Assembly: GCA_963708295.1 (NCBI GenBank)
Contig: CAVPSJ010000020.1
Coordinates: 64,001-128,000 of the forward strand
Direction: 5' to 3'
Source of the DNA: an uncultured delta proteobacterium
GTDB taxonomy: Bacteria; Desulfobacterota; BSN033; UBA1163
Length of the DNA stretch: 64,000 bases
Numbering within the stretch: the stretch's first letter is position 1; each line of letters opens with the position of its first letter. The position numbers and the translations under genes are program-made. Shown piece by piece: positions 2,980 through 29,833 of this stretch. The notes beneath the pieces are model-generated. The model ran no database searches. It was not told the origin of the DNA and worked only from the letters and a program-made list of their open reading frames with translations.

Positions 2980-3734
2980 TCGAAAAGTCGAATGGGAAGG
3001 TCGAGGTACTGTCGGATTTAGAAGCCCTGAGCCTCCGTGCTGCCTCGATCTTTGTGATTGCCACAAAAAGCTCGATTGCAAGAAAGAAGCGATTTGCGGT
3101 GGCGATTTCAGGAGGATCGACTCCGGGAAGATTGTATACGCTCTTGGGTTCCGAGGCCTATCGCCATCAGGTCGACTGGCAATCCGTCCATTTTTTCTGG
3201 GCGGATGAGCGCTGTGTGCCGAAGGATGATGAAGCAAGCAATTTCAGGACCGCTTTCGATCCCCTCATATCAAAGATTGCTTTGCCCGACAAAAACATTC
3301 ATCGAATTAAAGGGGAGGAAGCCCCTGACAAAGCTGCCAGGGGTTACGAAGAAGAGATCGGAAGATTTTTCGGAGGATCGGAAAGGCCACGGTTTGATCT
3401 GATTATTCTTGGAATGGGAGAAGACGGGCATACGGCCTCACTCTTTCCGGGCTCGAAGTCACTCGAGGAAACGGTCAGGCTTGCTGTCCCGGTCTATTTG
3501 GAGGAGCCCGAAAAGAATAGGATCACCCTTACCCTTCCTGTCTTAAACAATGCCGATCAGATACTCTTTCTCGTCGCAGGATCTTCCAAAGCTTCTGTCC
3601 TGTCCGAGATCTTAGGAGAGAAAGAAAAAAAGAAAGGGTTTCCTGCGGGAATGATCCGTCCTGCCCACGGAAACATCACATGGTTGATTGATCATGAGGC
3701 AGCTGGGAAATTAGGAGGGTTGAGGTTTCATTAA
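2964..3734 (+). CDS. pgl: 6-phosphogluconolactonase
   Basis: SGGSTP, DERCV, LGMGEDGHTASLFP, RITLT motifs. Confidence 0.95.
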   Translation: METPVIEKSNGKVEVLSDLEALSLRAASIFVIATKSSIARKKRFAVAISGGSTPGRLYTLLGSEAYRHQVDWQSVHFFWADERCVPKDDEASNFRTAFDPLISKIALPDKNIHRIKGEEAPDKAARGYEEEIGRFFGGSERPRFDLIILGMGEDGHTASLFPGSKSLEETVRLAVPVYLEEPEKNRITLTLPVLNNADQILFLVAGSSKASVLSEILGEKEKKKGFPAGMIRPAHGNITWLIDHEAAGKLGGLRFH

Positions 3735-13886: not shown

Positions 13887-14045
13887 CGGGAAGCATGAGA
13901 GGGCAGGGACAACCCATCCCCACCCCAGCCCTCCCCTTGAAAGGGAGGGGGAAGTTATATTTCTCGTCCTTGAAAGGAGGGTGAAATTATACTTCTCCCC
14001 CTTCAAGGGGGAGATTAGAGGGGGATGGGGTTTCGGAGGAATGAG

Positions 14046-14828
14046 ATGGCTGTGCAGGGAATATGGAGTGGAACGATCAGTTTCAGCCTGGTGGCGATCC
14101 CGGTACGGTTGGTGACCGCCGTTGAGCCAGGCCGGGTCTCATTTCACCTGCTCCACAATAAGGATTATTCTCCCCTCACAAGAAGAATGGTTTGTCCGAA
14201 AGAAGGAACGACTGTCCCGCGGGATGAGATCATAAGGGGATATGAGATCGCGCCCGACCAATACGTCCTGATAACGGACGAGGAACTGGAATCCGTCTCG
14301 CCGGAGCGGAGCCGCACGATCGAGATCGTCGAGTTCATCGATCTGAAGGAAGTGGACCCGATCTATTATGATCACCCCTATTATCTCGTTCCTTCGAAAG
14401 GGGGCGAAAAAGCGTATCGGCTGCTGGTCGAGGTGTTGCGCCGGACAAACAAGGCAGGGCTCGCAAAATTCGTCCTGGCTGAACGTGAGTATCTGGTGGC
14501 TGTTATACCCAGGGACGAAGCGCTGGCCCTCATCACGCTCCATTACAGCGATGAAACCCTGCCCGATGAAGGCCTTTCACCAAAGAAAGGGAAGAACGGG
14601 GCCGAGGAGGAAAACCGGATGAAGAAAAGCGTGAAGCAGATGATCAAAGATTTTCATCCGGAAAAATACGCGAACGAGCGCCGGAAAAGGATTATGGGGC
14701 TCTTGGAGGCGAAGGCGAAAGAAAAACCCCCGGTGGAGGCTCCTGCGGTAGAGGAGAAGGAGGGGGAAGGTCCGGCCGATCTGGTGGCTGCGCTGGAGGA
14801 GAGTATGCGGAAAATGAAAGCCAGTTAG
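14046..14828 (+). CDS. ku: NHEJ Ku protein, copy 2
   Basis: IWSGTISFSLVAIPVRL, YYDHPYYL, KAYRLL, DLVAALEES. Confidence 0.92.
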   Translation: MAVQGIWSGTISFSLVAIPVRLVTAVEPGRVSFHLLHNKDYSPLTRRMVCPKEGTTVPRDEIIRGYEIAPDQYVLITDEELESVSPERSRTIEIVEFIDLKEVDPIYYDHPYYLVPSKGGEKAYRLLVEVLRRTNKAGLAKFVLAEREYLVAVIPRDEALALITLHYSDETLPDEGLSPKKGKNGAEEENRMKKSVKQMIKDFHPEKYANERRKRIMGLLEAKAKEKPPVEAPAVEEKEGEGPADLVAALEESMRKMKAS

Positions 14829-14932
14829 AGACCCTGCTTTCTAGCGATCTAAGATTGTCGCTTTGTTCCGCTTACCTACTAATGAAGTAAAAACAATCGC
14901 CGCGGCTTTTTCTAACGGGGCAAGGAGAAACG

Positions 14933-15838
14933 GTGAGCCGTACATTCGTCAAGATGGCCGGGAGGAGACTCTCTTTATCTAACCTCGAAAAGGACCTTTA
15001 CGCTTCCTACGGTTTCACAAAGGCCCACATCTTGGAATACTACCGCCGGATCGCACCGTTCATGCTCCCTCATTTGAGAGACCGGGCATTGACCTTGAAG
15101 CGTTATCCGGAAGGGGTGGAAAAGGATTTCTTTTTCGAGAAGCGTTGTCCTTCTCACCGTCCGGCCTGGGTGAAAACAGCAGAGATCCCGCAGGAGGACG
15201 GAGAGCGGATGACGGTCTGCCTGGTCAACGATCTGGATACACTGATATGGGCGGAGAACCTTGCGTCCATTGAACTCCATGTGCCGCAAGCCAGGGCCGC
15301 TTCTCCCGAGATGGCCGATTCGATGGTCTTTGACCTGGATCCCGGCGATCCAGCAGGCATCCTGGAGTGTGCCCGGGTGGCGCTGATCCTTCGGGAACTG
15401 CTCTCCCGGATGGGGCTTGCGAGCTATGTCAAGACTTCAGGGAAAAAAGGGCTCCATGTCTATGTTCCCTTGAACCGGAAAGGAACCACCTTCGAGGATA
15501 CCAAGACGTTTTCAAAGGCTGTTGCAGAAATCATGCAGAAGCATTATCCGGATCTGGTGACTGCGAAAATGACAAAGGAAAACCGGAGCGGAAAGGTTTT
15601 TATCAACTGGTCTCAAAACGACGCATCGAAGACGATGATCTGCGTTTACTCTCTGCGCGCCCGGGAGAAACCATTCGTCTCGTTTCCGCTCGAATGGAAG
15701 GAAATCGACCCTCTGGCCGGGCGTGGCGATCCGGAAAGGCTGCAAGTCATACATTCAGAGGCGGTGAAAAGAGTTGAAAAAAAAGGTGACCTTTTTCGAG
15801 AGGTGCTCGTGAAAGAGCAGAAGCTTCCTCATTTATAG
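14933..15838 (+). CDS. ligD: LigD polymerase (primase-polymerase) domain, stand-alone
   Basis: KRYPEG, FFEKRCP, ASIELH, FDLDP, KTSGKKGLHV, YSLRAR. Confidence 0.9.
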   Translation: MSRTFVKMAGRRLSLSNLEKDLYASYGFTKAHILEYYRRIAPFMLPHLRDRALTLKRYPEGVEKDFFFEKRCPSHRPAWVKTAEIPQEDGERMTVCLVNDLDTLIWAENLASIELHVPQARAASPEMADSMVFDLDPGDPAGILECARVALILRELLSRMGLASYVKTSGKKGLHVYVPLNRKGTTFEDTKTFSKAVAEIMQKHYPDLVTAKMTKENRSGKVFINWSQNDASKTMICVYSLRAREKPFVSFPLEWKEIDPLAGRGDPERLQVIHSEAVKRVEKKGDLFREVLVKEQKLPHL

Positions 15839-15839
15839 C

Positions 15840-16000
15840 TTCCCCTTAACCCCCCTCTTTCCCCCCTTAAATTAAGGGGGGATGAGGTGGTTTGCGTTAA
15901 ATTAAGGGGGGAGGAGGGTGGGTTCCCTAAATCCCTAAATTAAGAGGGATGAAGAGGGGTTACCCCTCCCCTTAGAGTAAGGGGAGGTCCGGAGGGGTTA
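15840..16000. repeat. Cluster of CCCCCCTTAA-n-TTAAGGGGG palindromes
   Basis: Same family at ~50420-50490 and ~58515-58565. Confidence 0.7.
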
Positions 16001-16011
16001 CGAGGACTGTT

Positions 16012-17622
16012 ATGGGATTAAAAGATTACGCAGCTAAACGGGAATTCGAGAAAACACCCGAGCCGAAACCGGGCCTTCGACAGAAGGGAGACCGTCTCGT
16101 TTTTGTCGTTCAAAAGCACGCGGCACGGGCCCTTCATTATGATCTCAGGCTGGAGCTGGAAGGGGTGCTGAAGAGCTGGGCCGTGCCGAGGGGGCCCTCG
16201 CTGAATCCTTCCTTGAAAAGGCTGGCGGTTCTGGTTGAAGACCACCCGCTGGATTACAAGGATTTTGAAGGTGTTATTCCGGAGGGCAGTTACGGCGCAG
16301 GAAGCGTGATCATCTGGGACAGGGGTTTTTATCGTCACCCTTCCACCCGAGATGAGAACGAAAGTGAGAAACTTCTCCTGGACGGGTTCAGAAAAGGGGA
16401 TTTGAAGTTCGTCCTTGAAGGGGAAAAGCTTCACGGTGAATTCGCGCTGGTAAGAATGAGAAAAGACGAGAAATCGTGGCTTCTCCTGAAGAAAAAAGAC
16501 CGATATGCGGCCCAGGGGGAGATTCTCAAGGAGAGCCGTTCCGTCGTGTCCCAGAAGACCCTGGAGGAGATGCTCGAGACCGACACTCAGAAGTCGTTCA
16601 GGCAAAAGAAACGAAACCAGATCCGCCTTCACGAAGCGGTGGAAAGCGAAGACCTGGAGGATGCGCCGGTCAAACCGATGCCGCACGGTATAGAACCGAT
16701 GCTCGCGACGCCAGTCACGAAACCATTTGATCATCCGGACTGGATCTTTGAGGTGAAATGGGACGGGTATCGGACCGTTGCCGAAATCAGGGACGGGAGC
16801 GTTTCGCTTTATTCCCGGAACGGGATCTCGTTCGACAAAAAGTACTCTCCTATTGCGGAGTCGCTTCGAAAATTCGGATTTGACGCTGTTCTGGACGGCG
16901 AAATTGTTGTCGTGGATGACCAGGGACGCCCTGATTTCCAGGCGCTGCAGCATTACCAGGACTCCGGGGGCGGTCATTTGCTCTACTACGTTTTCGATCT
17001 CCTCTACTTTCGTGGACATGATCTGACGGACCTACCCTTGGTCAGGCGAAAGGAACTGCTGAAAAAAATTCTTCCGTCCGCCCCCAAAATACGATTCAGC
17101 GATCACGTATGGAAAGAAGGCGTTTTGTTTTATGCCGTTGCTAAAGAAAAGGGACTGGAAGGGATTGTGGCCAAACATTCTCAAAGTGCGTACGAGACGA
17201 GCAGAAGGAGCCGGCAGTGGCTGAAGGTGAAGACGCGGCTCACGCAGGAGGGCGTCGTCGCGGGATTTACAGAACCGGGAGGCAGCAGAAAATATTTTGG
17301 CGCCCTTGTCCTGGGCGTATTCGAAGGGGACGAATTGATTTACATCGGCCATCTGGGAGGCGGATTCACGGCGAACAATCTCAGGGAGATTCGCGAAAAA
17401 TTGGAGCCCCTGATCCAAAAAGAATGTCCCTTCACTTTGAAGCCAGAGACCAATACCCCGGTCACCTGGGTGAAGCCGCAGCTGGTCTGCGAGGTGGCTT
17501 TATCCGGCTGGACTGGAGATGGCGTGATGAGGCAGCCCGTTTTCTTACGGCTCCGGGAGGATAAAACCACCCGCGAGGTGATGCGCGAAATGCCCTTGAG
17601 GAGCGGTGGTGGAGGACAGTAA
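16012..17622 (+). CDS. ligD: LigD phosphoesterase plus ATP-dependent ligase
   Basis: QKHAARALHYDLRLE, SWAVPRGP, EDHP; EVKWDGYR, EGIVAK, WLKVK. Confidence 0.93.
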   Translation: MGLKDYAAKREFEKTPEPKPGLRQKGDRLVFVVQKHAARALHYDLRLELEGVLKSWAVPRGPSLNPSLKRLAVLVEDHPLDYKDFEGVIPEGSYGAGSVIIWDRGFYRHPSTRDENESEKLLLDGFRKGDLKFVLEGEKLHGEFALVRMRKDEKSWLLLKKKDRYAAQGEILKESRSVVSQKTLEEMLETDTQKSFRQKKRNQIRLHEAVESEDLEDAPVKPMPHGIEPMLATPVTKPFDHPDWIFEVKWDGYRTVAEIRDGSVSLYSRNGISFDKKYSPIAESLRKFGFDAVLDGEIVVVDDQGRPDFQALQHYQDSGGGHLLYYVFDLLYFRGHDLTDLPLVRRKELLKKILPSAPKIRFSDHVWKEGVLFYAVAKEKGLEGIVAKHSQSAYETSRRSRQWLKVKTRLTQEGVVAGFTEPGGSRKYFGALVLGVFEGDELIYIGHLGGGFTANNLREIREKLEPLIQKECPFTLKPETNTPVTWVKPQLVCEVALSGWTGDGVMRQPVFLRLREDKTTREVMREMPLRSGGGGQ

Positions 17623-19884: not shown

Positions 19885-22442
19885 TCATTCCATCCTCAAC
19901 GATTCCACCATGTTCATTCTGGCAGCCCGCCGGGACGGGATGAGCCCGGCACCGATCGACGTGACCATAACCACCAGCCAGGACTCGATCAAACTCCAGA
20001 TGGGAACGGAGAACTGGATGGTCCATCCAAAGGACTGTTTGTTAATGACATAAACGAGAAGGACGGAAAGGAGAAACCCGCAGACGAGGCCGAAAATATG
20101 GCTGAAAAAGCCAATCATCCCTGCTTCGATCAGCGTGGTTTTCTCGATCTGTCTGCGGAAGGCACCCACTGCCCGGATGATCCCGATATCCCGCTGCCTT
20201 TCGATGATCAGCGCATTCAAGGAGTTAATAATTCCAAGAATGGCCACGATCATAGCGATAAATTCCAGCGCATAGGTAATCGCAAAGGTCTGGTCAAAGA
20301 TCTTCAGAACCTCTTTCCGCAACTCCCGGTGGGAAACCACAAAGAGACGATAAGGTTTGGAGTATCTTTCCCGGATCATCTCCTTGAAGGCCTCCTGGGA
20401 GACCCCTTCTTGGAGATAGATTCCGGCGCTGTGAAGCGTCTCATCGTTCCACAGCGATTGAAAGATTTTTTTCTCCAGCAGGATCATTCCCCAATCTGAA
20501 GAATAATCGTAGAAGACTCCGGAGATCAGAAACTCTTTTTCCCCTTGGGGGGTGTTGACCTTTATCCGGTCTCCGGCCTTCACGTGATGCCTGAGTGAGA
20601 AACTCTCGGTGACGAGAATGGCCCGGCCGGCGGCAAACTGCCGGAGAATGGCCCGAGGATTCCCTTGTGTGAAGCGGATCACCTTCAAGTTGAGAAATAC
20701 CTCTCCATCGACAGATGCGATCAGGGCGGGCTGGCCTTGATATTCGACTTCCAATGCCCTGAAGGGATCAACAGCCTTCACTCCGGGAAGAGAAGGCAAG
20801 GCCCTGGAGACCTCCAGGGGGAGGAGGGCGGAGTACCCTGTGATGGAGTAGGAGCCCGGGAAGATGAACACGTCCCCGTTGATCGATTGTTCCACCCAGA
20901 GATCCACCGTCTTCCGGAAGCTCAGGATCATGATCGAGATGCTGATCAGCATCGAGAGGGCGGTCATCAATGCGGCAATCGTGATCACGGTCCTGGCCAT
21001 CGAATCATGGATATATCGACTCGCCAGTTTTCCTTCGGGACCAAAGAGGAAACGGAGAGCCGGAGCCATCAGACGGTTCAGGAGATGGGTGGCAGAAGGG
21101 ATCAGGAAGGAGACCCCTACGACAATGAGAAGTGCAGCCATGAAGCCCAAGATGGGCCGGTGAGCGATGGGTTTCTGGAGGGCAAAAATGAGCGAAAGGA
21201 TGAGAAGACCCATCCCGATGAGATTGAAACGCCCGGTACGAGTTTTTACTTTCTTTTCGAGGGTTCCCAGCGCCAGGGCCTCCGTGGGGGCGATCCCTGA
21301 GGCTTCCCTGGCGGGGCCGATCGAGGAGAGAACCGAAGCAAGCACTCCCATTCCAAAGCCTGCCATTAACACGGACGGAGAGATCAAGAGATGTTCTGCC
21401 TTGACCAGAATATAGAGAGCCGTAATCGTTCTTGAGACGAGATAAAGCATGGCCTTTGCCAACCCTATCCCGATTCCTATCCCGAACAGACTTCCCAAAC
21501 ATCCGATCCATGCCGCTTCACTGATGAAAAGACCGAGGACCTGGGGTCGGGTCAGACCGATGCTTCGAAGAATTCCAACCTCCCGCCTCCTCTGAATGAT
21601 CGAGATGGAGATGGCGTTATAGATCAAGAACATTCCCACAATGAGAGAGATAAAGCTGAGGGCAGTCAGGTTGAGGTGAAAAGCCGAAACCATTTTTTCG
21701 ATTTGACCGCTCCGGGTATCGGACCGGCGAATCTCGACTCCGGGAGGGATTACTTTTTTCAGGTCTCTCTCGATCGTGTCCGCCGCCATGGATTTGTCTA
21801 CCATCAGGTCAATCCGGTCGATGAGGCCGACCTTCTCCAGGGCTTCCTGAGCGGAGGCGATGTCGATGAGGCCGAAATTTCCTTCCAGCGATTTGGCAGG
21901 CCCCTCCATCTTTAGAAGATGGGTGATGGTAAAGGGTACCTTTTTTGATCCTACGATGAGATGGATTGGCCCTCCTTTTTCAACCCGTGCCGGCTGGCCA
22001 GTTTTTCGGTGATGGCAATGGAATTTGGCGTTTTCAAAAAGAGGAGGTCCGACGCATCCGTTTCGTAGAATTGATATTCCCTGAAGGGCCGATCACTAAA
22101 GACGTCAACGCCGAGGAGATAGAGGGGTTCTCCGATGGGCTCATCGATTTTGGAGACATATTGAATGACGGGTGTGGCGGCCTTGACTCCGCGAACGCTT
22201 TTTACCTTGAGGTAGACGTCTTCAGAAAAGCCCCTCCCAAAGGAGGTAACCTGGAAATTGGCTTTCCCCGAGACATGATCGACGGAGGCGTTGAAGGATT
22301 CGATGGCCGTGTAAATGGCCGTCTGGACACTGACGAAAACAGCCACTCCCAGGGCGATTCCTATTATGGACAGGAGGGTTCTGCCTTTATGGTGACGGAG
22401 ATGGCGGAGAGTGATATTCTTGAGGAGGTGAAAGAGGACCAT
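19885..22442 (-). CDS. FtsX-like ABC transporter permease (AttF/AttG-like); one frameshift near 21970
   Basis: N-half RTLLSIIGIALGVAVF; C-half QRRREVGILRSIG and ERQRDIGIIRAVGA; frames join upstream of 21909. Confidence 0.85.
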
Positions 22443-22448
22443 ATAGAA

Positions 22449-22620
22449 AAATCCGAAATACGAATATCTAAATCCGAAACAAATCCAAATTCTCAAATTT
22501 CCAATGTTCTAAACTTTTTTCAGCGATCTGTTTTAAGTTTTGAATCTTGGTCATTCGGTATTGTTTCTAATTGATCGCTAATGCGATGCTTCGCCCGGAT
22601 TTCGTGCTTCGATATTCATA
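22449..22620. repeat. AT-rich short-unit repeat (AAATCCG/AAATCC type) with inverted ends
   Basis: Similar tract at 48525-48642. Confidence 0.6.
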
Positions 22621-22629
22621 AAGTTGTGG

Positions 22630-23310
22630 TTACTCCGTCAGAAGTTTGCCGTCGCGCATTTGGATCACCCGATCGGCCGCGGACGCTCCTTCCAGGCTGT
22701 GAGTGACGAGGACAATCGTCTTTCCACGCTCGTCCCGCAATCGCGCCAGAATCTCCAAAACCTGCTTTCCCGAGGCCGAATCGAGATTCCCCGTGGGCTC
22801 ATCCGCGAGGATCATTTCGGGATCGTTGATTAAGGCCCGGCAGATGGCCACCCGTTGCATCTCTCCGCCGGAGAGTTCGTGGGGATGATGATAGCGTCTG
22901 TCCGAAAGGCCGATTTCTTCAAGGAGGCGTTCCATTTGAGCCGGCGGAGGGTTGGAGCCTTCCCGCAGCAGATAGGGGAGGGCGATGTTCTCTTCGAGGT
23001 TCAGAATGGGCAGGAGGTTGAAGAATTGGAAGATGATCCCTACGCGGTCCCGCCGAAACAGAGTCAGCTTCCGGTCGTCCATCCGGGAGATGTCCTCCCC
23101 TTGGATCATCACGGAGCCTTGGTCCGGGGAATCGAGCCCTCCAAGGATATTAATCAGGGTGGACTTCCCGCACCCGCTTTTGCCTGTAATGGCTATAAAT
23201 CCTCCTTTGGGGAGGTTTAAGTTGACATGGTCCAGGGCAATCACCGGGTTTTCCCCCGGGTGATAAATCTTTGTGACCTCCCTCAATTCGATGAAATGAT
23301 CTTCTGCCAT
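22630..23310 (-). CDS. ABC transporter ATP-binding protein (LolD/AttE-like)
   Basis: GKSGCGKST, LSGGEMQR, ILADEPTGNLD, VTH. Confidence 0.93.
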   Translation of the reverse strand: MAEDHFIELREVTKIYHPGENPVIALDHVNLNLPKGGFIAITGKSGCGKSTLINILGGLDSPDQGSVMIQGEDISRMDDRKLTLFRRDRVGIIFQFFNLLPILNLEENIALPYLLREGSNPPPAQMERLLEEIGLSDRRYHHPHELSGGEMQRVAICRALINDPEMILADEPTGNLDSASGKQVLEILARLRDERGKTIVLVTHSLEGASAADRVIQMRDGKLLTE

Positions 23311-23468
23311 GATCAAGAAGAACAGAGATTAAATTCTCTCCGACCCTTTCTATATATCGGGGGGAATAATAAATTGTCAACTCATCAGCGGGATTTCGCC
23401 CGCCGTCGATCGATAAAGATGGGACCCATAACTAATTCGCATTGACGACCGATCGAGGGAGGGGTGAG

Positions 23469-24380
23469 TCAATCTTCAAAGCAGGCTTTCGGCACGCTGG
23501 AGAGGTCTAATCCATCGTAGAATCTTTCAATTTCGATTGAAAGTTCCTTGATCTTTCTTAATAAGGGTTCGGGAATGAGAAGAGTTGCTTGAGCCACCTC
23601 CTCTTCATAGAGGTTGTGTCTGAGATATTCGGGTTCGCTCTTGCCGAACCATATCTCTGCCTCCCACGATTTTTGATTGAAAAATTCGGTCTTGAAATGC
23701 TTCTCACTCAGCCCGAACGGGCTCCCGGGGGAGATAAAGGTCAGTACTCCGTGATTGGACGCGGGCCTGGCAGCGAGATTGGCATACATGCACATAAATT
23801 CTCCTCCGAAGGCAACCGAGCGAACTGACAGACTCCGTCCGTTGATTTTGCTTTCGACATATTCTTGAAGAAGGTAAGGGTTCGATGCAAGATTCAATTT
23901 CCAAACAGAGGAAGGCTCGTTGACGATCTGCAAATCCCTTCCTCCTCTTCCTACCCGCCGCTTCAAAATCACCTTCTGCTTTCTTCCGATGAAACGGCCA
24001 ACCCCGGCCGTATCTTCCGGGTTAAAGATCATCGTCTCCGGCATGGGGGCAATGGCCTTAAGCAACTGGTATTGATTCCACTTGTCCTCCAACCTCAATC
24101 CAGGATGAAAGGTGTTCGGGAAGGGTCCCATACCGTCCATCCAGATCTTGAAAGGTTTTAGGCTGCTGATAAAGGGAAGGGAATGAAGGTAGTCTTTGAA
24201 GGTCTTTCCATAAACTTTTTGAGAAGTCGATTCGATTCGCTGGAAGATATCCGAGGGTTTCCCAAAATGGACCGCATGGGTAAGATGATATTCATGAGCC
24301 CCGCCGGGAAGGCCGACATTCACCTCCGCCAGGTAGAGCATCAACTCAGGAGTGATCAGAAAGTCAATTCCGAGATACAT
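23469..24380 (-). CDS. Circularly permuted ATP-grasp-fold protein
   Basis: GIDF...EVN..PGG at the N-terminus, then EDKW, MPET, LKRRVGRGG, LLQEYV, SNHG; start uncertain (24380 or 24389). Confidence 0.65.
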   Translation of the reverse strand: MYLGIDFLITPELMLYLAEVNVGLPGGAHEYHLTHAVHFGKPSDIFQRIESTSQKVYGKTFKDYLHSLPFISSLKPFKIWMDGMGPFPNTFHPGLRLEDKWNQYQLLKAIAPMPETMIFNPEDTAGVGRFIGRKQKVILKRRVGRGGRDLQIVNEPSSVWKLNLASNPYLLQEYVESKINGRSLSVRSVAFGGEFMCMYANLAARPASNHGVLTFISPGSPFGLSEKHFKTEFFNQKSWEAEIWFGKSEPEYLRHNLYEEEVAQATLLIPEPLLRKIKELSIEIERFYDGLDLSSVPKACFED

Positions 24381-24435
24381 GCCACACAAAAAAAACAGGT
24401 CATCGATTCACCCGACCTGTTCTCTTGAGTTAAGG

Positions 24436-24527
24436 TCATTGCGAGGAGTAAAACGACGAAGCAATCTCATCGCTTAGCGGGTGAGATTGCCGCGCTCTCC
24501 CGCTCAGGCGGGATCGCTCGCAATGAC
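24436..24527. repeat. GTCATTGCGAG...CTCGCAATGAC REP-like palindrome
   Basis: Perfect 11-bp outer arms with inner GCAATCTC/GAGATTGC stem. Confidence 0.8.
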
Positions 24528-24567
24528 AACCTGGACCCATTGGATGCATTTTTCCCATAGGGCAAGA

Positions 24568-24597
24568 GGGGCCCCCTCCCTTCCTGGGAAGGGGCCC
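24568..24597 (-). terminator. GC-rich hairpin immediately after the 20-aa ORF
   Basis: GGGCCCC...GGGGCCC stem ~10 nt past the stop; U-tract weak. Confidence 0.55.
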
Positions 24598-24607
24598 GAT
24601 GAATGAC

Positions 24608-24670
24608 TTAACAAGATGCTTTGCATTTGCAAAGGCCGGAGAACTTCTTGGCCACCTTCTTGATGGTCAT
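24608..24670 (-). CDS. Putative RiPP precursor peptide MTIKKVAKKFSGLCKCKASC (20 aa)
   Basis: Translated by hand; RBS GGAGGTG inside the last rSAM codons, ATG 1 nt after the rSAM TGA, TAA at 24610-24608, hairpin after. Confidence 0.75.
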   Translation of the reverse strand: MTIKKVAKKFSGLCKCKASC

Positions 24671-24671
24671 A

Positions 24672-25838
24672 TCATTCACCTCCCTTCAGAACCCCTCTCG
24701 CAAAACATTGAAAGAGATCGGGTTGCAAAAGATTGCTTTCAACTTTGGCCCTATAGCGGCACCCCCCTCTGCACTCTTCAATCACGTCGCATTTGCAGAC
24801 AAGGTCTTTTAATGAGATGCGAAGGATGCGGACCCAACAAGTTCGAAGTCCTTCTTCGATAGATCCCGTCGGTTCTTGACTAAAGAGACCACACTTACAG
24901 ACGGCTCCGTTCGCCATTATAGCACAAAGGTGAGCGCCGCAAGTAGAATTTCTTGTTGAACCGTGAAATCCGCCTCCAAACCCGTAAGCAAGAAAATGGC
25001 CGGCTTCAGAAGGAGACACGTGAAGGTCCTGGTTTTCTTTCAGTCTTCCCTCAACACAGGGAACATCCACATTCCATTCCTCAATTCGTTTTGATTGAAG
25101 AAGGGAGGCCAGCCGGTCGAACTCCGACAGATTTCGCCGGTGAATCATCGTCGCCACGGAAACCCGTATGTTGGCTTCTTGCAGATGGTTAACGGCGGTG
25201 ATGGCTTTTTCGAAGGTTCCTCTTCCTCGCAGCGAATCGTGACCTTCTTTCATACCATCGAGACTGATCTGGACCTCATGAACACGGAGCTTTTTGGCGA
25301 CTTCTCTGGAGATCAATGTGCCGTTGGAGAGGAGAACCGATCGAAATGGATAGTCTCGAAGAATCTCGTTTAATTGCCAAAAATGAGGGTGAAGCAAAGG
25401 CTCCCCTCCGGACAGAAGGAGTCTCAGCCCTTGGATCTCTTCAAATTGGTCCAATACTTTTTCGATCTGTTTCCTTGAGAGATCCTGATGAGAACCTTCC
25501 CCGATGTAACAGTGGCGGCACCGGAGGTTACACCGGTTGGTGATCTGGAGCTCAAGATACCGTAAGGAAGGAGCCGGGGAAGGATTCGAAACGATCTTTC
25601 TTTGGGAAGGGGCTTCCGAGAAGGCGATTAAGTTTTCGTCGAGGCAAAATCGGATGAATTCTTCATCTTCCTGCCGTACAGGAGGACTTTCACCCCGGCA
25701 GATGCGGAGAAGAAATTGATACCCATCCTCGTTCAGTTCATAAAGTTCGTCTTTTTCGATATCGTAGAGGTAGCGTTCTTCGAGATTTTTAAGAACAGCG
25801 TGAGGGGAAAGGGTGATGACCCTATTCTCGAAGGGCAT
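24672..25838 (-). CDS. Radical SAM/SPASM enzyme with N-terminal RRE(PqqD)-like extension
   Basis: CNLRCRHC, SGGEPLLHP, QISLDG; SPASM-like CGA..C..CKC and CKC-x5-C-x3-C-x17-C; ~85-aa N-terminal domain. Confidence 0.88.
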   Translation of the reverse strand: MPFENRVITLSPHAVLKNLEERYLYDIEKDELYELNEDGYQFLLRICRGESPPVRQEDEEFIRFCLDENLIAFSEAPSQRKIVSNPSPAPSLRYLELQITNRCNLRCRHCYIGEGSHQDLSRKQIEKVLDQFEEIQGLRLLLSGGEPLLHPHFWQLNEILRDYPFRSVLLSNGTLISREVAKKLRVHEVQISLDGMKEGHDSLRGRGTFEKAITAVNHLQEANIRVSVATMIHRRNLSEFDRLASLLQSKRIEEWNVDVPCVEGRLKENQDLHVSPSEAGHFLAYGFGGGFHGSTRNSTCGAHLCAIMANGAVCKCGLFSQEPTGSIEEGLRTCWVRILRISLKDLVCKCDVIEECRGGCRYRAKVESNLLQPDLFQCFARGVLKGGE

Positions 25839-25986
25839 CGGAGATCTCCTCGGAGGTGAGGATCTTCTTTTCTAAAAGCCGCTTGAGAATTTTGTAGGCG
25901 CCGCATTCCAGGTCCTTGTCGGACTCTTTATAAAAATCGCAATGCTTACAGATCAATTCGGTCAAAGACTCTTTATCTAATTTCAC
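25822..25986 (-). CDS. Small Cys-containing protein (CxxC-x11-C), overlaps the rSAM start
   Basis: GTG 25986 with AAGGA upstream (TTG 26004 is the alternative); ICKHCDFYKESDKDLECGAY; 17-nt overlap with the rSAM. Confidence 0.7.
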   Translation of the reverse strand: MKLDKESLTELICKHCDFYKESDKDLECGAYKILKRLLEKKILTSEEISDALRE

Positions 25987-26087
25987 GAGATTTCCTTTCG
26001 CCAAAATAGTAATCTAAAATGTGCGAGGATTCAACTTGTTTCAGTTTTCCTTCCCTTTGCTCCGAGGTTTGACCTTCAAAAAAAGAC

Positions 26088-26140
26088 TTGACAAGGTGTA
26101 TCTGATTTATTATATTGATCAGTAAAATCTGATTTATTTG
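26088..26140 (+). promoter_or_regulatory. Promoter and direct repeat upstream of hgcC-arsM
   Basis: TTGACA at 26088, TATATT-like -10; ATCTGATTTATT occurs twice (~26100, ~26127). Confidence 0.5.
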
Positions 26141-26182: not shown

Positions 26183-26461
26183 ATGGTCAAAAAACCTGAA
26201 AAAGGAGCCTGCGCCGAACCTGCCTGCGGGAAAGTGAGTTGTTGCAGGGTGGATGCACTGATCGGCGTCGACGAACGTGGGCAGATGGTCCTTCCCAAAG
26301 AAGTCAGGGATAAAGCCGGTATCCGCACAGGAGACAAGTTGGCGCTTGTGAGCTGGGAGAAGGACGGAAAAGTGTGCTGCTTGACTCTGATTAAGGCCGA
26401 TGAATTCGAAGGGATGGTGAAGGGGCTCCTGGGTCCGATGATGAAGGAAGTGATGGGATAG
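26183..26461 (+). CDS. hgcC: HgcAB-associated protein HgcC (AbrB/MazE-type, vicinal CC pairs)
   Basis: CCRVDALIGVDERGQMVLPKEVRDKAGI...KDGKVCCLTLIK. Confidence 0.75.
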   Translation: MVKKPEKGACAEPACGKVSCCRVDALIGVDERGQMVLPKEVRDKAGIRTGDKLALVSWEKDGKVCCLTLIKADEFEGMVKGLLGPMMKEVMG

Positions 26462-26491
26462 TGCTGCTAAATAATGCGGAGGTGGCCGAAC

Positions 26492-27328
26492 ATGGAAAAG
26501 GAAGAAATAAGAAAAGTCGTAAGAGAGGGCTACGGCAAAATCGCGAAACAAGACAGCTCGTGCTGTGCTCCTGAAAAATCCTGTTGCGGGAGCGCAACGT
26601 CAGCGCAGGATATTGGCAGAAAGATAGGATACAGCGAAGCAGAATTGAAAACCGTTCCCGAGGGAGCAAATTTGGGCCTTGGATGCGGCAACCCTATCGC
26701 TCTCGCATTATTAAAAGAAGGGGAAGTGGTTCTCGATCTGGGGTCAGGCGCGGGTTTTGACTGTTTTCTCGCTGCCAACCAGGTGGGTAAGACGGGGAGA
26801 GTCATCGGGGTGGACATGACGGCGGAGATGCTCGACCGGGCAAGAGAGAATGCCCGGAAAGGCAATTATGCCAATGTGGAATTCAGACTGGGAGAGATCG
26901 AGAACTTACCCGTGGCAGACCATCAGGTGGACGTCATTATCTCCAATTGCGTGATCAATCTTTCCCCGAACAAGAAAAGAGTTTTCCGGGAAGCCTTCCG
27001 TGTGCTCAGGCCGGGTGGAAAGTTAATGGTCTCTGACATTGTGCTTCTCAAAGAGCTACCCGCCGAGGTCAAAGATTCCGTGGCCGCCTGCATCGGCTGC
27101 GTGGCGGGAGCCGTGACCAAGAAGGAGTACCTGGAGGCGGTTCAGGCTGCAGGATTTGAGGAGACCAAGATTGTGGGCGAAGCGGCTTTTTCCACGGAGC
27201 TCCTGGTCAGTGATCCGGTAGCCAGAGAGATTGCTAAGAATCTGAACCTGTCCCCGGAAAGAGCCGAGGATCTGGCGAGCTCAGTCGTGAGTATCAAGGT
27301 CTCGGCAACCAAGCCGGCCGTGAGTTAG
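26492..27328 (+). CDS. arsM: Arsenite S-adenosylmethyltransferase
   Basis: SSCC, NLGLGCGNP, LDLGSGAGFD, ISNCVINL, GCVAGA; RBS GGAGGTG. Confidence 0.92.
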   Translation: MEKEEIRKVVREGYGKIAKQDSSCCAPEKSCCGSATSAQDIGRKIGYSEAELKTVPEGANLGLGCGNPIALALLKEGEVVLDLGSGAGFDCFLAANQVGKTGRVIGVDMTAEMLDRARENARKGNYANVEFRLGEIENLPVADHQVDVIISNCVINLSPNKKRVFREAFRVLRPGGKLMVSDIVLLKELPAEVKDSVAACIGCVAGAVTKKEYLEAVQAAGFEETKIVGEAAFSTELLVSDPVAREIAKNLNLSPERAEDLASSVVSIKVSATKPAVS

Positions 27329-27812: not shown

Positions 27813-28655
27813 ATGTGGGACTATACAGAAAAGGTAAAAGACCATTTTCTTAATCCAAGAAATGTAGGAGAGATTGAGAATCCGGACGGAGCGGGTGAGG
27901 TCGGGTCGCTGGCCTGCGGCGATGCCCTGAGGCTCTCGTTCAAGCTGGATGAGAAAAAACGGATTAAAGACGCAAAATTTAAAACCTTCGGATGTGCGAG
28001 TGCCATCGCTTCCTCTTCCGCGCTGACGGAGATCATCAAGGGGAAGACGCTTGAGGAAGCCGCCCGGGTGACCAATCAGGATATCGCCGACTACCTGGGA
28101 GGGCTTCCCGAGGAAAAGATGCACTGCTCGGTGATGGGAAGAGAAGCTCTCGAGGCGGCAATTGCCAGCTATCGCGGGGAGAAAGTAAAAAAAGAAGATT
28201 TCGAAGTGATCTGCAACTGCTTCGGTGTGACAGATCGCGAGATCATCAAGGCAGTCCGTGAGAATAATCTGAAAACGGTGGAACAGGTAACCTACTATAC
28301 GAAGGCCGGGGGAGGATGCGGCCAGTGCCATCCCAAGATCGAGGCCATCATCGAAAAAGTGAGAAAGGAAATGGAAAAGGAGGCCCCTCCTCCCAAACCT
28401 GAGAAAAGGAAGCTGACGAACATCCAGAAGATCAAATTGATCGAGGAGACATTGGGGAGGGAGATCATTCCGGCGTTGAAGGCGGATGGAGGGGATCTGG
28501 ATTTAGTCGATATCGAAGGCAATAAAGTCCTGGTCGCCCTGAGGGGAAAATGCTCCTTCTGCCCCAGTTCCGAATTTACGTTGAAACAGTATGTCGAATC
28601 GAAATTGAGAGAGTTTGTCAGCGACGATATTGAAGTGGAGGAGGTCAGGCCGTGA
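27813..28655 (+). CDS. nifU: Fe-S cluster assembly scaffold NifU (three domains)
   Basis: ACGD, FGCASAIAS, KMHCS; CNCF...GGCGQC; CSFC. Confidence 0.95.
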   Translation: MWDYTEKVKDHFLNPRNVGEIENPDGAGEVGSLACGDALRLSFKLDEKKRIKDAKFKTFGCASAIASSSALTEIIKGKTLEEAARVTNQDIADYLGGLPEEKMHCSVMGREALEAAIASYRGEKVKKEDFEVICNCFGVTDREIIKAVRENNLKTVEQVTYYTKAGGGCGQCHPKIEAIIEKVRKEMEKEAPPPKPEKRKLTNIQKIKLIEETLGREIIPALKADGGDLDLVDIEGNKVLVALRGKCSFCPSSEFTLKQYVESKLREFVSDDIEVEEVRP

Positions 28656-29833
28656 AGACCGTCTATGTGGATAATAATGCGACGACAAGAGTAGCCCCGG
28701 AAGTCCTGGAGGTGATGCAGCCTTATTTTTCTGAGTACTATGGTAATCCTTCAAGCATGCATTTTTTCGGAGGTCAGGTCCAGAAGAAGGTGGATGAGGC
28801 AAGGGCAAGGGTGGCGGAATTCTTGGGGGCAGAGCCTTCGGAGATTGTCTTCACGAGCTGCGGGACAGAGAGCGACAACGCCGCGATCCTGGGGACACTC
28901 GATTCTTATCCTGAGAAGCGGCATATCATCACAACCCGGGTTGAGCATCCTGCGGTGGGGAATGTGTCTACCTATTTAGGCCGAAAGGGCTATCGCGTCA
29001 CCGAACTTTCCGTCGATCGAGAGGGACGGTTGGATCTGGATGAGCTGAGAGAGTCCCTGACCGACGGGACCGCCGTGGTCACCATCATGTATGCCAACAA
29101 TGAAACGGGCGTGATCTTTCCGATCGAAGAGATTGGCGAAATTGTCAAGGCCAAAGGGATTCCTTTTCACACCGATGCAGTTCAGGCGGCAGGGAAGATC
29201 CCCCTCAGCATGAAAAAATCGAAGCTGGATATGCTCTCTATCTCCGGTCACAAACTCCATGCACCCAAAGGAATCGGGATCCTCTACATCCGGAAGGGGA
29301 CGAAGTTTTCTCCCTTCCTGATCGGTGGCCATCAGGAGAAGGGTAGAAGAGGGGGGACGGAGAATGTTCCTTACATCATCGGGCTGGGGAAGGCCTGTGA
29401 GATGGCCCAAAAACATCTGAATGAAGAGAACACGAGGGTCAGATCTCTAAGAGATTATCTCGAGGCGAAGCTTCTGGAAAAGATTCCGAATACGTTAGTG
29501 AATGGAGACCGAAAAAACCGGCTTCCCAACACGACGAGCCTGAGCTTCGAATATGTCGAAGGAGAATCAATTCTCCTTCTTCTTTCCGATCTCGGTATCT
29601 GCGCTTCGTCGGGATCGGCCTGTACTTCGGGTTCTCTGGAGCCTTCGCATGTCCTCAGGGCCATGGGGGTTCCTTTTACCGCGGCACACGGGTCGATCCG
29701 TTTCAGCCTCTCCATCTATAGTACGAAAGAAGAGATGGACTATATCATCGAGCATCTCCCGCCCATCATCCAGAGACTGAGAGACATCTCGCCTTTCTGG
29801 AAAGATTATCTGAAGGCCCAGGGGAGAGTCTAA
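28652..29833 (+). CDS. nifS: Cysteine desulfurase NifS
   Basis: DNNATT, HTDAVQ, SGHKLH, SSGSACTS. Confidence 0.95.
   Translation: MKTVYVDNNATTRVAPEVLEVMQPYFSEYYGNPSSMHFFGGQVQKKVDEARARVAEFLGAEPSEIVFTSCGTESDNAAILGTLDSYPEKRHIITTRVEHPAVGNVSTYLGRKGYRVTELSVDREGRLDLDELRESLTDGTAVVTIMYANNETGVIFPIEEIGEIVKAKGIPFHTDAVQAAGKIPLSMKKSKLDMLSISGHKLHAPKGIGILYIRKGTKFSPFLIGGHQEKGRRGGTENVPYIIGLGKACEMAQKHLNEENTRVRSLRDYLEAKLLEKIPNTLVNGDRKNRLPNTTSLSFEYVEGESILLLLSDLGICASSGSACTSGSLEPSHVLRAMGVPFTAAHGSIRFSLSIYSTKEEMDYIIEHLPPIIQRLRDISPFWKDYLKAQGRV

Follow-up and report, generated by a model that had tools for sequence, protein, structure and literature searches.

A conserved 20-residue cysteine-ended peptide as the probable substrate of a radical SAM/SPASM enzyme in anaerobic bacteria

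In a 64,000-nt stretch of DNA from an uncultured delta proteobacterium (hereafter the window; contig CAVPSJ010000020.1 of assembly GCA_963708295.1, positions 64,001 to 128,000 of the forward strand), a 20-codon open reading frame (ORF) directly follows the gene of a radical S-adenosylmethionine (SAM) enzyme with a SPASM domain. We consider it likely that the ORF encodes the substrate of the adjacent enzyme and that the two, together with a three-cysteine protein encoded beside them, form an unnamed system resembling those of peptides that are ribosomally synthesized and then modified post-translationally (RiPPs), present in anaerobes of several phyla. An original prediction, made from the letters of the window alone, had read peptide and enzyme as a candidate new RiPP; the conservation of the ORF, its co-occurrence with the enzyme and the maturase-like fold of the enzyme support that reading. 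All of the elements that it described are present, and it missed two partners, a 54-aa three-cysteine protein and an ATP-grasp ligase (Table 1).

Table 1. Features of the peptide locus and its downstream neighbours; positions are those of the window
Feature	Positions	Strand	Remarks
Peptide gene, 20 aa, MTIKKVAKKFSGLCKCKASC	24608-24670 (stop counted)	minus	predicted substrate of the radical SAM enzyme
Shine-Dalgarno site of the peptide gene, GGGAGGTG	24677-24684	minus	inside the final codons of the radical SAM gene
G+C-rich hairpin, 12 bp	24569-24597	minus	just 3' of the peptide stop; -31 kcal/mol over 60 nt
Radical SAM/SPASM enzyme, 388 aa	24672-25838	minus	PF04055, SPASM cysteines and fold
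Regions of the enzyme (residues)			RRE-like 1-88; radical SAM core ~95-290 (C103, C107, C110); SPASM ~296-388
Three-cysteine protein, 54 aa	25822-25986	minus	probable GTG start at 25986; overlaps the start of the radical SAM gene by 17 nt
ATP-grasp ligase, 303 aa, start MYLGIDF	23469-24380	minus	apparently circularly permuted
Possible exporter, ABC ATPase	22630-23316	minus
Possible exporter, MacB/FtsX-type permease	21951-22496, 19885-21909	minus

The peptide ORF runs from an ATG (24670-24668) to a TAA (24610-24608), and the TGA stop of the enzyme gene stands a single base (24671) before that ATG. As had been claimed, the enzyme gene ends in GGA GGT GAA TGA, its last codons contain a ribosome site, and the peptide has six lysines, three cysteines and no acidic residue (neither Asp nor Glu). 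The claim that it was unannotated also stood: the exact 20-aa peptide has no entry in a collection of 15 billion proteins, and we therefore believe that gene callers overlooked the ORF. A scan of the peptide against NCBIfam found no family at E values of up to 10.

Six-frame translation of the loci of enzyme homologs, where the original prediction expected a conserved small ORF, yielded one ending C-x-C-x3-C-stop in 28 of 30 loci, a set that includes the window itself (L001) and in which L026 and L030 are one place. The exceptions are L024, with no adjoining peptide ORF, whose genome (G035) has both peptide and enzyme, on separate contigs, and L029, which holds a second copy of the enzyme gene with an internal TGA. 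The DNA of 27 compared loci comprises 27 different sequences. M1, I3, K5, K8, C14, K15, C16, S19 and C20 are constant across them, and the codons of the tail (C14, K15, C16, S19 and C20) change at synonymous third positions alone: C14 is TGC in 24 loci and TGT in 3, C16 TGC in 16 and TGT in 11, S19 TCT in 14, TCC in 12 and TCA in 1, and C20 TGT in 15 and TGC in 12, with both AAA and AAG used for K15. The stop is TAA in 17, TGA in 9 and TAG in 1. By inspection, the signature of the family is M-x-I-x-K-[VILA]-x-[KR] followed, after five residues, by C-K-C-x-x-[S/T]-C-stop, at a constant length of 20. Because the core varies only synonymously and because the ribosome site and the hairpin are conserved as well, the 20-codon ORF is a genuine gene, far beyond what chance would give.

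The ribosome site predicted inside the last enzyme codons was found there, and a AAAGGAGGTG-like site lies 6-10 nt upstream of the peptide ATG in 27 of 27 loci. Over all loci we collected 100 peptide instances, which reduce to 61 distinct sequences of gene plus 60 nt; by eye, and uncounted, a GGAGG-like site precedes most of these, unlinked copies included. The predicted GC hairpin after the stop is likewise real, and in 56 of the 61 distinct instances a stem-loop of at most -12 kcal/mol forms. We aligned 34 of the 37 distinct downstream sequences, excluding L015, L020 and L027, whose hairpins lie at other offsets. For 11 of the 12 stem pairs, at least one of the 34 has changed letters on both sides and still pairs. 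No T-run follows the hairpin in the window, and it is probably a partial terminator or a stabiliser of the mRNA. By eye, unlinked copies of the peptide gene come with a ribosome site of their own, and several are followed by a terminator-like hairpin with a T-run. Among the public sequencing runs with parts of positions 23400-26100, one is an RNA library, and it yields a single 219-nt contig for this region; 100% identical to the window, it covers 24524-24742 and so spans the last 71 nt of the enzyme gene, the peptide gene and the hairpin. Contigs give no level, strand or ends, positions that this library leaves uncovered carry no meaning, and we take this as only a hint of expression of the peptide gene.

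The presence of the peptide follows that of the enzyme. Among 61 related genomes, 27 contain an ortholog of the enzyme (30 loci), and a degenerate DNA pattern for the peptide matches the same 27. Additional peptide copies bring the number to three in G001 and to two each in G013, G020 and G008. Over a sample of 401 genomes of the phylum, the enzyme was matched in 44 (E 1e-60 or better) and the strict peptide pattern in 15, all 15 of them within the 44. From the 29 genomes positive for the enzyme and negative for the pattern we fetched 16, and every one of these encodes a variant 20-residue peptide beside the enzyme gene, mostly ~450 nt upstream of it, with tails that include CKCAKSC, CKCKKSC, CKCGRSC, CKCHSSC, CKCKKTC and CKCASSC. 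A reversed control pattern gave no match in either the 61 or the 401 genomes.

On public contigs (one genome per species), the strict pattern found 58 stretches. Of these records, 44 show a homolog of the enzyme in the same locus (at most 8 kb long) and 14 do not; some of the 14 have the peptide copy at the edge of the locus. For five of the 14 we searched the whole genome, and in four an ortholog (46-50% identity) is encoded on another contig. The record titles name Syntrophaceae, Thermodesulfobacteriota, Deltaproteobacteria, Desulfomonile, Syntrophorhabdus, Desulfovibrionales and Desulfobacteraceae, in addition to three 'Chloroflexia', one Dehalococcoidia, four Nitrospirota (including Thermodesulfovibrio), one Bacillota and one Candidatus Abyssobacteria. 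The cultured species Desulfarculus baarsii and Desulfoferula mesophila encode orthologs of the enzyme. The genetic coupling of a precursor gene to a modifying enzyme, by which RiPP systems are recognized, is thus present here.

We note three loci of individual interest. A 1354-nt contig from a metagenome-assembled genome labelled 'Nanoarchaeota' (L077, JAUYDG010000024.1) carries the peptide gene and an enzyme 72% identical to that of the window, and is probably a mis-binned bacterial contig. At L114, tandem peptide genes (3415-3477 and 3581-3643, plus strand) precede one enzyme gene and encode peptides that differ at position 17 alone (tails CKCKSSC and CKCHSSC). The second cassette at L029/L044 (genome G036, contig C81), with a small protein, the enzyme gene with its in-frame TGA and an ATP-grasp gene matched over ~200 aa at 54% identity, has no peptide gene between the cassette genes and looks like a decaying paralog.

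The enzyme has the make-up expected of a peptide maturase. The CxxxCxxC motif and cysteine-rich tail that had been claimed were recovered as C103-x3-C107-x2-C110 and C348-x-C350-x5-C356-x3-C360-x17-C378, and we add C300 and C316, which had not been listed. The motif, together with a match to PF04055 (E 2e-23; 83.8 bits, cut-off 29.5), places the protein in the radical SAM superfamily; this core is the only part that Pfam recognises. SPASM domains carry a seven-cysteine signature, C-x9-15-G-x4-C ... C-x2-C-x5-C-x3-C ... C, and the enzyme shows it as C300-x10-G311-x4-C316, C348-x-C350-x5-C356-x3-C360 and C378, with CxC in the window's clade where distant orthologs have CxxC. All ten cysteines (three radical SAM ligands and seven of SPASM) are invariant among 23 orthologs of 39-87% identity, and one homolog (P0219) has a precomputed match to the Pfam SPASM model PF13186.

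An AlphaFold2 model of the enzyme was of high confidence (predicted local distance difference test, pLDDT, 91.5; predicted template modelling score, pTM, 0.91). In a Foldseek search SkfB, SuiB and CteB ranked first, with anSME among the best matches. SkfB and SuiB superpose over the whole length of the model, N-terminal domain included, from residues 8-12 onward, and the alignments with anSME, CteB and SuiB extend as far as residue ~384. Within this whole-length model, residues 7-74 form four strands and two helices, and the profile of the cysteine-rich peptide maturase CcpM (TIGR04068) aligns from residue 16. The modelled fold supports a likeness of the N-terminal domain to the RiPP recognition element (RRE). 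Taken together, the fold and the SPASM cysteines therefore indicate the three-part architecture of peptide-modifying SPASM enzymes, and because peptide presence tracks the enzyme family and the enzyme has this architecture, a pair of substrate and enzyme is the simplest reading of the locus.

Assignment to a named family was sought in NCBIfam, in which 81 families match the enzyme. Almost all of them align with residues 95-270 only, the CcpM profile being an exception. None of the 25 matches listed reaches its cut-off, in line with the original prediction, which did not recognise the candidate RiPP as a named family; the best scores are those of WgkB (~105 bits against 650) and NirJ (104 against 515). 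That prediction had held that membership of a non-peptide SPASM clade (NirJ, AhbC/D, anSME) would speak against it. The profiles of these enzymes stay below their cut-offs (AhbC 93 against 650 bits, AhbD 93 against 500, anSME 61 against 349) and leave the extra N-terminal domain uncovered. Matches to PqqE in searches of the Protein Data Bank (PDB) were confined to the radical SAM core. The names of public homologs are generic ('radical SAM protein', 'radical SAM/SPASM domain-containing protein'); one homolog at JGI is called 'AdoMet-dependent heme synthase', a name that is probably wrong.

The first of the two added partners, the three-cysteine protein, lies within an ORF of 25822-26004, and relatives have ATG where the window has the GTG at 25986. 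A small cysteine protein is encoded directly upstream of the enzyme in the window's family and in loci of Chloroflexota, Bacillota and Abyssobacteria, and its residues C13, C16, F18, K20, E21, C28 and G29 are invariant. It matches no Pfam family (E up to 10) and no NCBIfam family, and in the ESM Atlas it found only clusters of 'hypothetical protein'. Its profile, searched against 1.84 billion representative proteins, identified 129 clusters with E values no higher than 0.001; many of these are 108-146-aa proteins that were matched twice and are thus two-domain forms (E 3e-9). In the distant loci L038 (E 6e-17 to P0303; the 132-aa protein of this locus gives no meaningful Pfam match up to E 10) and L115, the gene of such a two-domain protein stands between those of the peptide and the enzyme. 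Two-domain proteins also match the first ~110 residues of 497-aa fused radical SAM enzymes (P0296 against P0214, E 1e-9), and that of L115 is 60% identical to the fused enzyme P0157 (E 6e-36). In P0267 (120 aa), an RRE-like segment, 46% identical to residues 9-58 of the enzyme, is joined to a three-cysteine domain. A direct hhalign comparison of the small-protein alignment with P0157 was weak (E 0.052, probability 1%), and the link was made through intermediates. Because of these natural fusions we believe that the small protein functions within the enzyme, and as judged from sequence it is probably a part of it that helps to recognise the substrate or provides an additional site for a metal or cluster. 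A prediction of the complex of enzyme and small protein yielded no answer (score 0.00, where the mark is 0.32), which speaks neither for nor against binding. A role as a LysW-like carrier was set aside; the C-terminal residue is not conserved. In another context, P0330 (474 aa) has the two-domain three-cysteine module at its C-terminal end (~375-474) behind what by eye are receiver and PAS signalling domains. The module is therefore also used outside radical SAM loci, perhaps as a domain for sensing or binding.

The second added partner is the ATP-grasp ligase, whose start, MYLGIDF, is shared by all 24 distinct orthologs. Pfam ATP-grasp_3 matches it with the first half of the profile only, at residues 98-201, and the Pfam CP_ATPgrasp models do not match. 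Invariant D6 and E19-x-N21 precede the invariant K140 and the G144-R148 loop; a D...E-x-N motif is, as we understand it, the Mg-binding element found near the C-terminus of other ATP-grasp enzymes. In comparisons with a structural model of moderate quality (pLDDT 67, pTM 0.72), canonical ATP-grasp enzymes (Ddl, PurK, synapsin, RimK, MdnC and PsnB) align only from ~66-100 to 291. Alignments that begin at residue 1 of the model come solely from permuted ligases, namely eukaryotic glutathione synthetase, glutathionylspermidine synthetase, YgiC, and PDB entries 3n6x and 3k1t. The eukaryotic glutathione synthetase has a circularly permuted ATP-grasp fold and activates the carboxylate of a C-terminal cysteine, that of gamma-Glu-Cys. 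From motif order and alignments, the ligase of the window is probably circularly permuted too, in a comparable way. The ATP-grasp alignment, searched as a profile against the PDB, gave insignificant matches only (positions 3-31 against tubulin-tyrosine ligase 315-342, E 0.27-0.7), which are not used as evidence here. The ESM Atlas returned the ligase's own ATP-grasp_3 clusters and a lead to GshA at 0.88, under the guide value of 0.9. The peptide offers no side-chain carboxylate, and its C-terminal carboxylate is the only one common to the orthologs; for this reason we infer that the ligase acts on the C-terminus of Cys20.

These parts suggest a sequence of events. The peptide would be translated from its own ribosome site, with the hairpin limiting read-through or stabilising a short mRNA. 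Its N-terminal M-x-I-K-K-V-x-K segment could then dock on the RRE-like domain of the enzyme, to which the 54-aa cysteine protein might contribute as an added recognition or cluster-binding subunit, as its translational overlap with the enzyme gene and the natural fusions suggest. SAM would be cleaved at the radical SAM cluster and the resulting radical would abstract hydrogen in the C-K-C-x-x-S/T-C tail, whereupon a cysteine thiol at the SPASM auxiliary cluster could close at least one thioether ring, with K15 and S/T19 as candidate acceptors; this step is modelled on SkfB, CteB and other SPASM maturases. In the window's family alone, the permuted ATP-grasp would finally activate the carboxylate, the likeliest outcomes being C-terminal amidation or a lactam.

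Several points weigh against this proposal. Both the thioether rings and the C-terminal ligation are chemistry assigned by analogy, and a leader of 13 residues would be unusually short for binding to an RRE. The ATP-grasp is confined to the window's family and therefore falls outside the core chemistry. PF13186 does not match the enzyme, in whose C-terminal 105 aa Pfam finds no family up to E 10, and its N-terminal 95 aa match neither PqqD/RRE nor any other Pfam family at the same limit. Scores of ~105 bits are common to peptide maturases (WgkB, ScmE, GeoRSP) and heme enzymes (NirJ, AhbC/D) and concern only the core, residues 95-270. The finding of variant peptides leaves 13 of the 29 pattern-negative genomes outside its count, and genome G061, of unstated completeness, has an unlinked peptide copy and showed no ortholog of the enzyme. 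Finally, the RNA-library contig has a depth of 2.4 and is possibly derived from DNA.

The substrate-enzyme pair could instead belong to a secreted antimicrobial or signal, with the leader cut off and the cross-linked C-terminal heptapeptide exported by a MacB-type ABC transporter. Directly downstream, on the same strand, are an ABC ATPase and an FtsX/MacB permease (LolD/DarD-like ATPase, FtsX and MacB_PCD domains by NCBIfam and Pfam), and the ATPase scores near the profiles of the darobactin exporter DarD and of lactococcin-972-type exporters, under their cut-offs. The same arrangement recurs in L031, L041, L043, L082, L103 and L104. It adjoins the cassette, however, only where the enzyme is 78-87% identical to that of the window, and not in more distant members, and across the examined loci we saw no leader protease, no GG-type cleavage motif and no conserved transporter. 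The near-invariance of the whole peptide across phyla is contrary to the behaviour of arms-race peptides, and the peptide gene frequently lies apart from that of the enzyme, with two or three copies in some genomes. We therefore regard a secreted product of this kind as unlikely.

It is less likely again that the enzyme acts on the 54-aa cysteine protein, or on a small molecule, with the 20-aa peptide as an unmodified partner that binds metal or a cluster or serves as an activator. The small protein has three invariant cysteines and is always beside the enzyme; protein substrates of SPASM enzymes exist, such as CrpA/CrpC (PMC13692751); and metal handling is conceivable given the His-tailed cupins, DsrE-like proteins and ArsP-type permease described below. 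Against this, the small domain is elsewhere fused to the N-terminus of the enzyme or to the RRE-like domain, for which a subunit is the better fit. An RRE-like domain is moreover typical of enzymes that act on short peptides, and the fixed length and strict C-terminal placement of the motif suggest that the peptide itself is worked on. As for a regulatory leader peptide whose Cys/Lys codons and hairpin attenuate downstream transcription, we consider this very improbable: in distant loci such as L027 the ORF does lie upstream of the cysteine protein and the enzyme, ahead of a hairpin that, with its T-run, resembles a terminator, but in the window's family its place is downstream of the enzyme, I3 and S/T19 (outside the Cys/Lys codons) and the exact length of 20 are conserved, one hairpin and no alternative pairing is evident, and the 14 of 58 copies without the enzyme within at most 8 kb have neighbours that by eye vary by locus.

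If, as we prefer, the peptide is the substrate of the enzyme, the nature of the product can be addressed through its conservation. Because the peptide is near-invariant, its gene often unlinked and the transporter not conserved, the product is more likely a housekeeping molecule (cofactor-like, metal-binding or a signal) than an arms-race antibiotic. We raise, tentatively and as something rather less than likely, the further possibility that the peptide is the precursor of a conserved sulfur-rich cofactor or metal-binding prosthetic peptide of strict anaerobes, which would be a third such system beside pyrroloquinoline quinone (PQQ) and mycofactocin. On this view the radical SAM/SPASM enzyme, with its novel three-cysteine accessory domain, would make the product, and in one family the permuted ATP-grasp would complete it at the C-terminal cysteine.

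Turning to the neighbourhood, the permease downstream of the cassette consists of two ORFs (674 aa and 181 aa) ~40 nt apart, and two-piece matches were also seen in L031; these may be two genes or a conserved break. In distant lineages the neighbour met most often is a small cupin, in many cases with a His-rich tail; it lies directly downstream on the same strand in 11 of the 39 loci selected, and a DsrE-like protein occurs in 5 of them. As one example, we point to the cupin-like protein at L115 (5905-6300, plus strand), which has a long His-rich tail; its neighbours there are a DsrE-like protein and an ArsP_1-type permease whose tail is rich in Cys and His. The homolog in L038 ends GHHH and matches Cupin_2 weakly (E 0.0015, under the cut-off).

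Two genes diverge from the cassette in the window, at 26183-27328 on the plus strand: one encodes an HgcC-type AbrB-like protein, with 124.9 bits to NF040962 (cut-off 70), and the other an arsenite methyltransferase, with 364.6 bits to NF008823 (cut-off 263). This HgcC/ArsM neighbourhood is common only to some close relatives (L031 and L043), and an arsenic- or metal-specific role for the system, considered on its account, was set aside for that reason. By eye, NifU- and NifS-like ORFs of Fe-S assembly follow at 27813-29833 (plus strand), a pair that adjoins the cassette in several relatives, and Ku- and LigD-like ORFs of end-joining repair lie at 14025-17622 (plus strand).

Between the hairpin and the ATP-grasp gene lies a short repeat element (24434-24500), whose core occurs at 8 places in its own genome. 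In two wetland metagenomes the contig depth of the bin 24401-24491 is ~4,800 and 6,400, against tens to low hundreds nearby, and many loose contig ends fall at 24435 and 24467-24469. One relative's contig has 32 other letters in place of 24423-24559. The element looks like an insertion of the REP/MITE type.

The peptide is among the shortest and most strictly conserved candidate precursors, with 20 residues, a cysteine end and a distribution over at least four bacterial phyla. Two unexplored parts accompany it, a three-cysteine domain that occurs free, duplicated or fused to the enzyme, and the apparently permuted ATP-grasp. Cultured hosts encode orthologs, and chemistry and function are therefore directly testable. 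The general kind of system, a ribosomal peptide modified by a radical SAM enzyme, is known; the family itself is unnamed, in that NCBIfam names neither enzyme nor peptide, and searches of the open full-text literature found no paper describing either peptide or family, supplementary tables and subscription journals lying outside that coverage.

The nearest comparison is with SCIFF peptides and other ranthipeptides (CteA-CteB, Tte1186a-Tte1186), of which we take TIGR03973 to represent the SCIFF peptide and TIGR03974 its maturase. SCIFF is recognized by a precursor of ~45 aa that has six cysteines, together with a maturase that exceeds its cut-off, a combination that the window does not present: its peptide has 20 aa and three cysteines, and the 54-aa cysteine protein and, in one family, the ATP-grasp are additional. 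SCIFF occurs in Clostridia, whereas the system of the window is found in Thermodesulfobacteriota, Chloroflexota, Nitrospirota and others. The broad conservation of SCIFF in Clostridia has been taken as an argument against an antimicrobial role (PMC8326336). The same question surrounds the present peptide, and its strict conservation suggests a physiological role in anaerobes and not a niche antibiotic.

The enzymes of streptide (SuiA-SuiB) and the sporulation killing factor (SkfA-SkfB) are only 16-24% identical to that of the window, and their precursors are unrelated. SuiB forms a Lys-Trp carbon-carbon bond, and the window peptide has no Trp; the auxiliary domain of SkfB is smaller and of the twitch type. 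Graspetide ligases need side-chain Asp or Glu, which the window peptide lacks, and it is accordingly not a graspetide. Bacteroidetes loci with an ATP-grasp, a SPASM enzyme and small 'LPL' proteins, proposed to act like PqqD, are described by Makarova et al. 2022 (PMC8939145). As presented there, they resemble the present system in combining a precursor and a small protein directly upstream of the SPASM enzyme with an ATP-grasp; they belong to other families, and the ATP-grasp here is apparently permuted and of the glutathione-synthetase type.

In PQQ and mycofactocin biosynthesis, the precursors carry motifs (Glu/Tyr and Val-Tyr) that are absent from the window peptide, the accessory protein is PqqD or MftB in place of a three-cysteine domain with, as far as tested, no PqqD fold, and the pathway enzymes PqqB/C and MftD/E/F have no counterparts that we could see at the window system. 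The profile of mycofactocin MftC (TIGR03962) gave 90.2 bits against a cut-off of 265, and the enzyme is thus not its equivalog. What distinguishes the present system is the shortness of the peptide with conservation over its full length, its frequent separation from the enzyme, the three-cysteine domain and, in one family, the permuted ATP-grasp. In its conservation it resembles SCIFF, PQQ and mycofactocin, unlike the variable clusters that encode bacteriocins.

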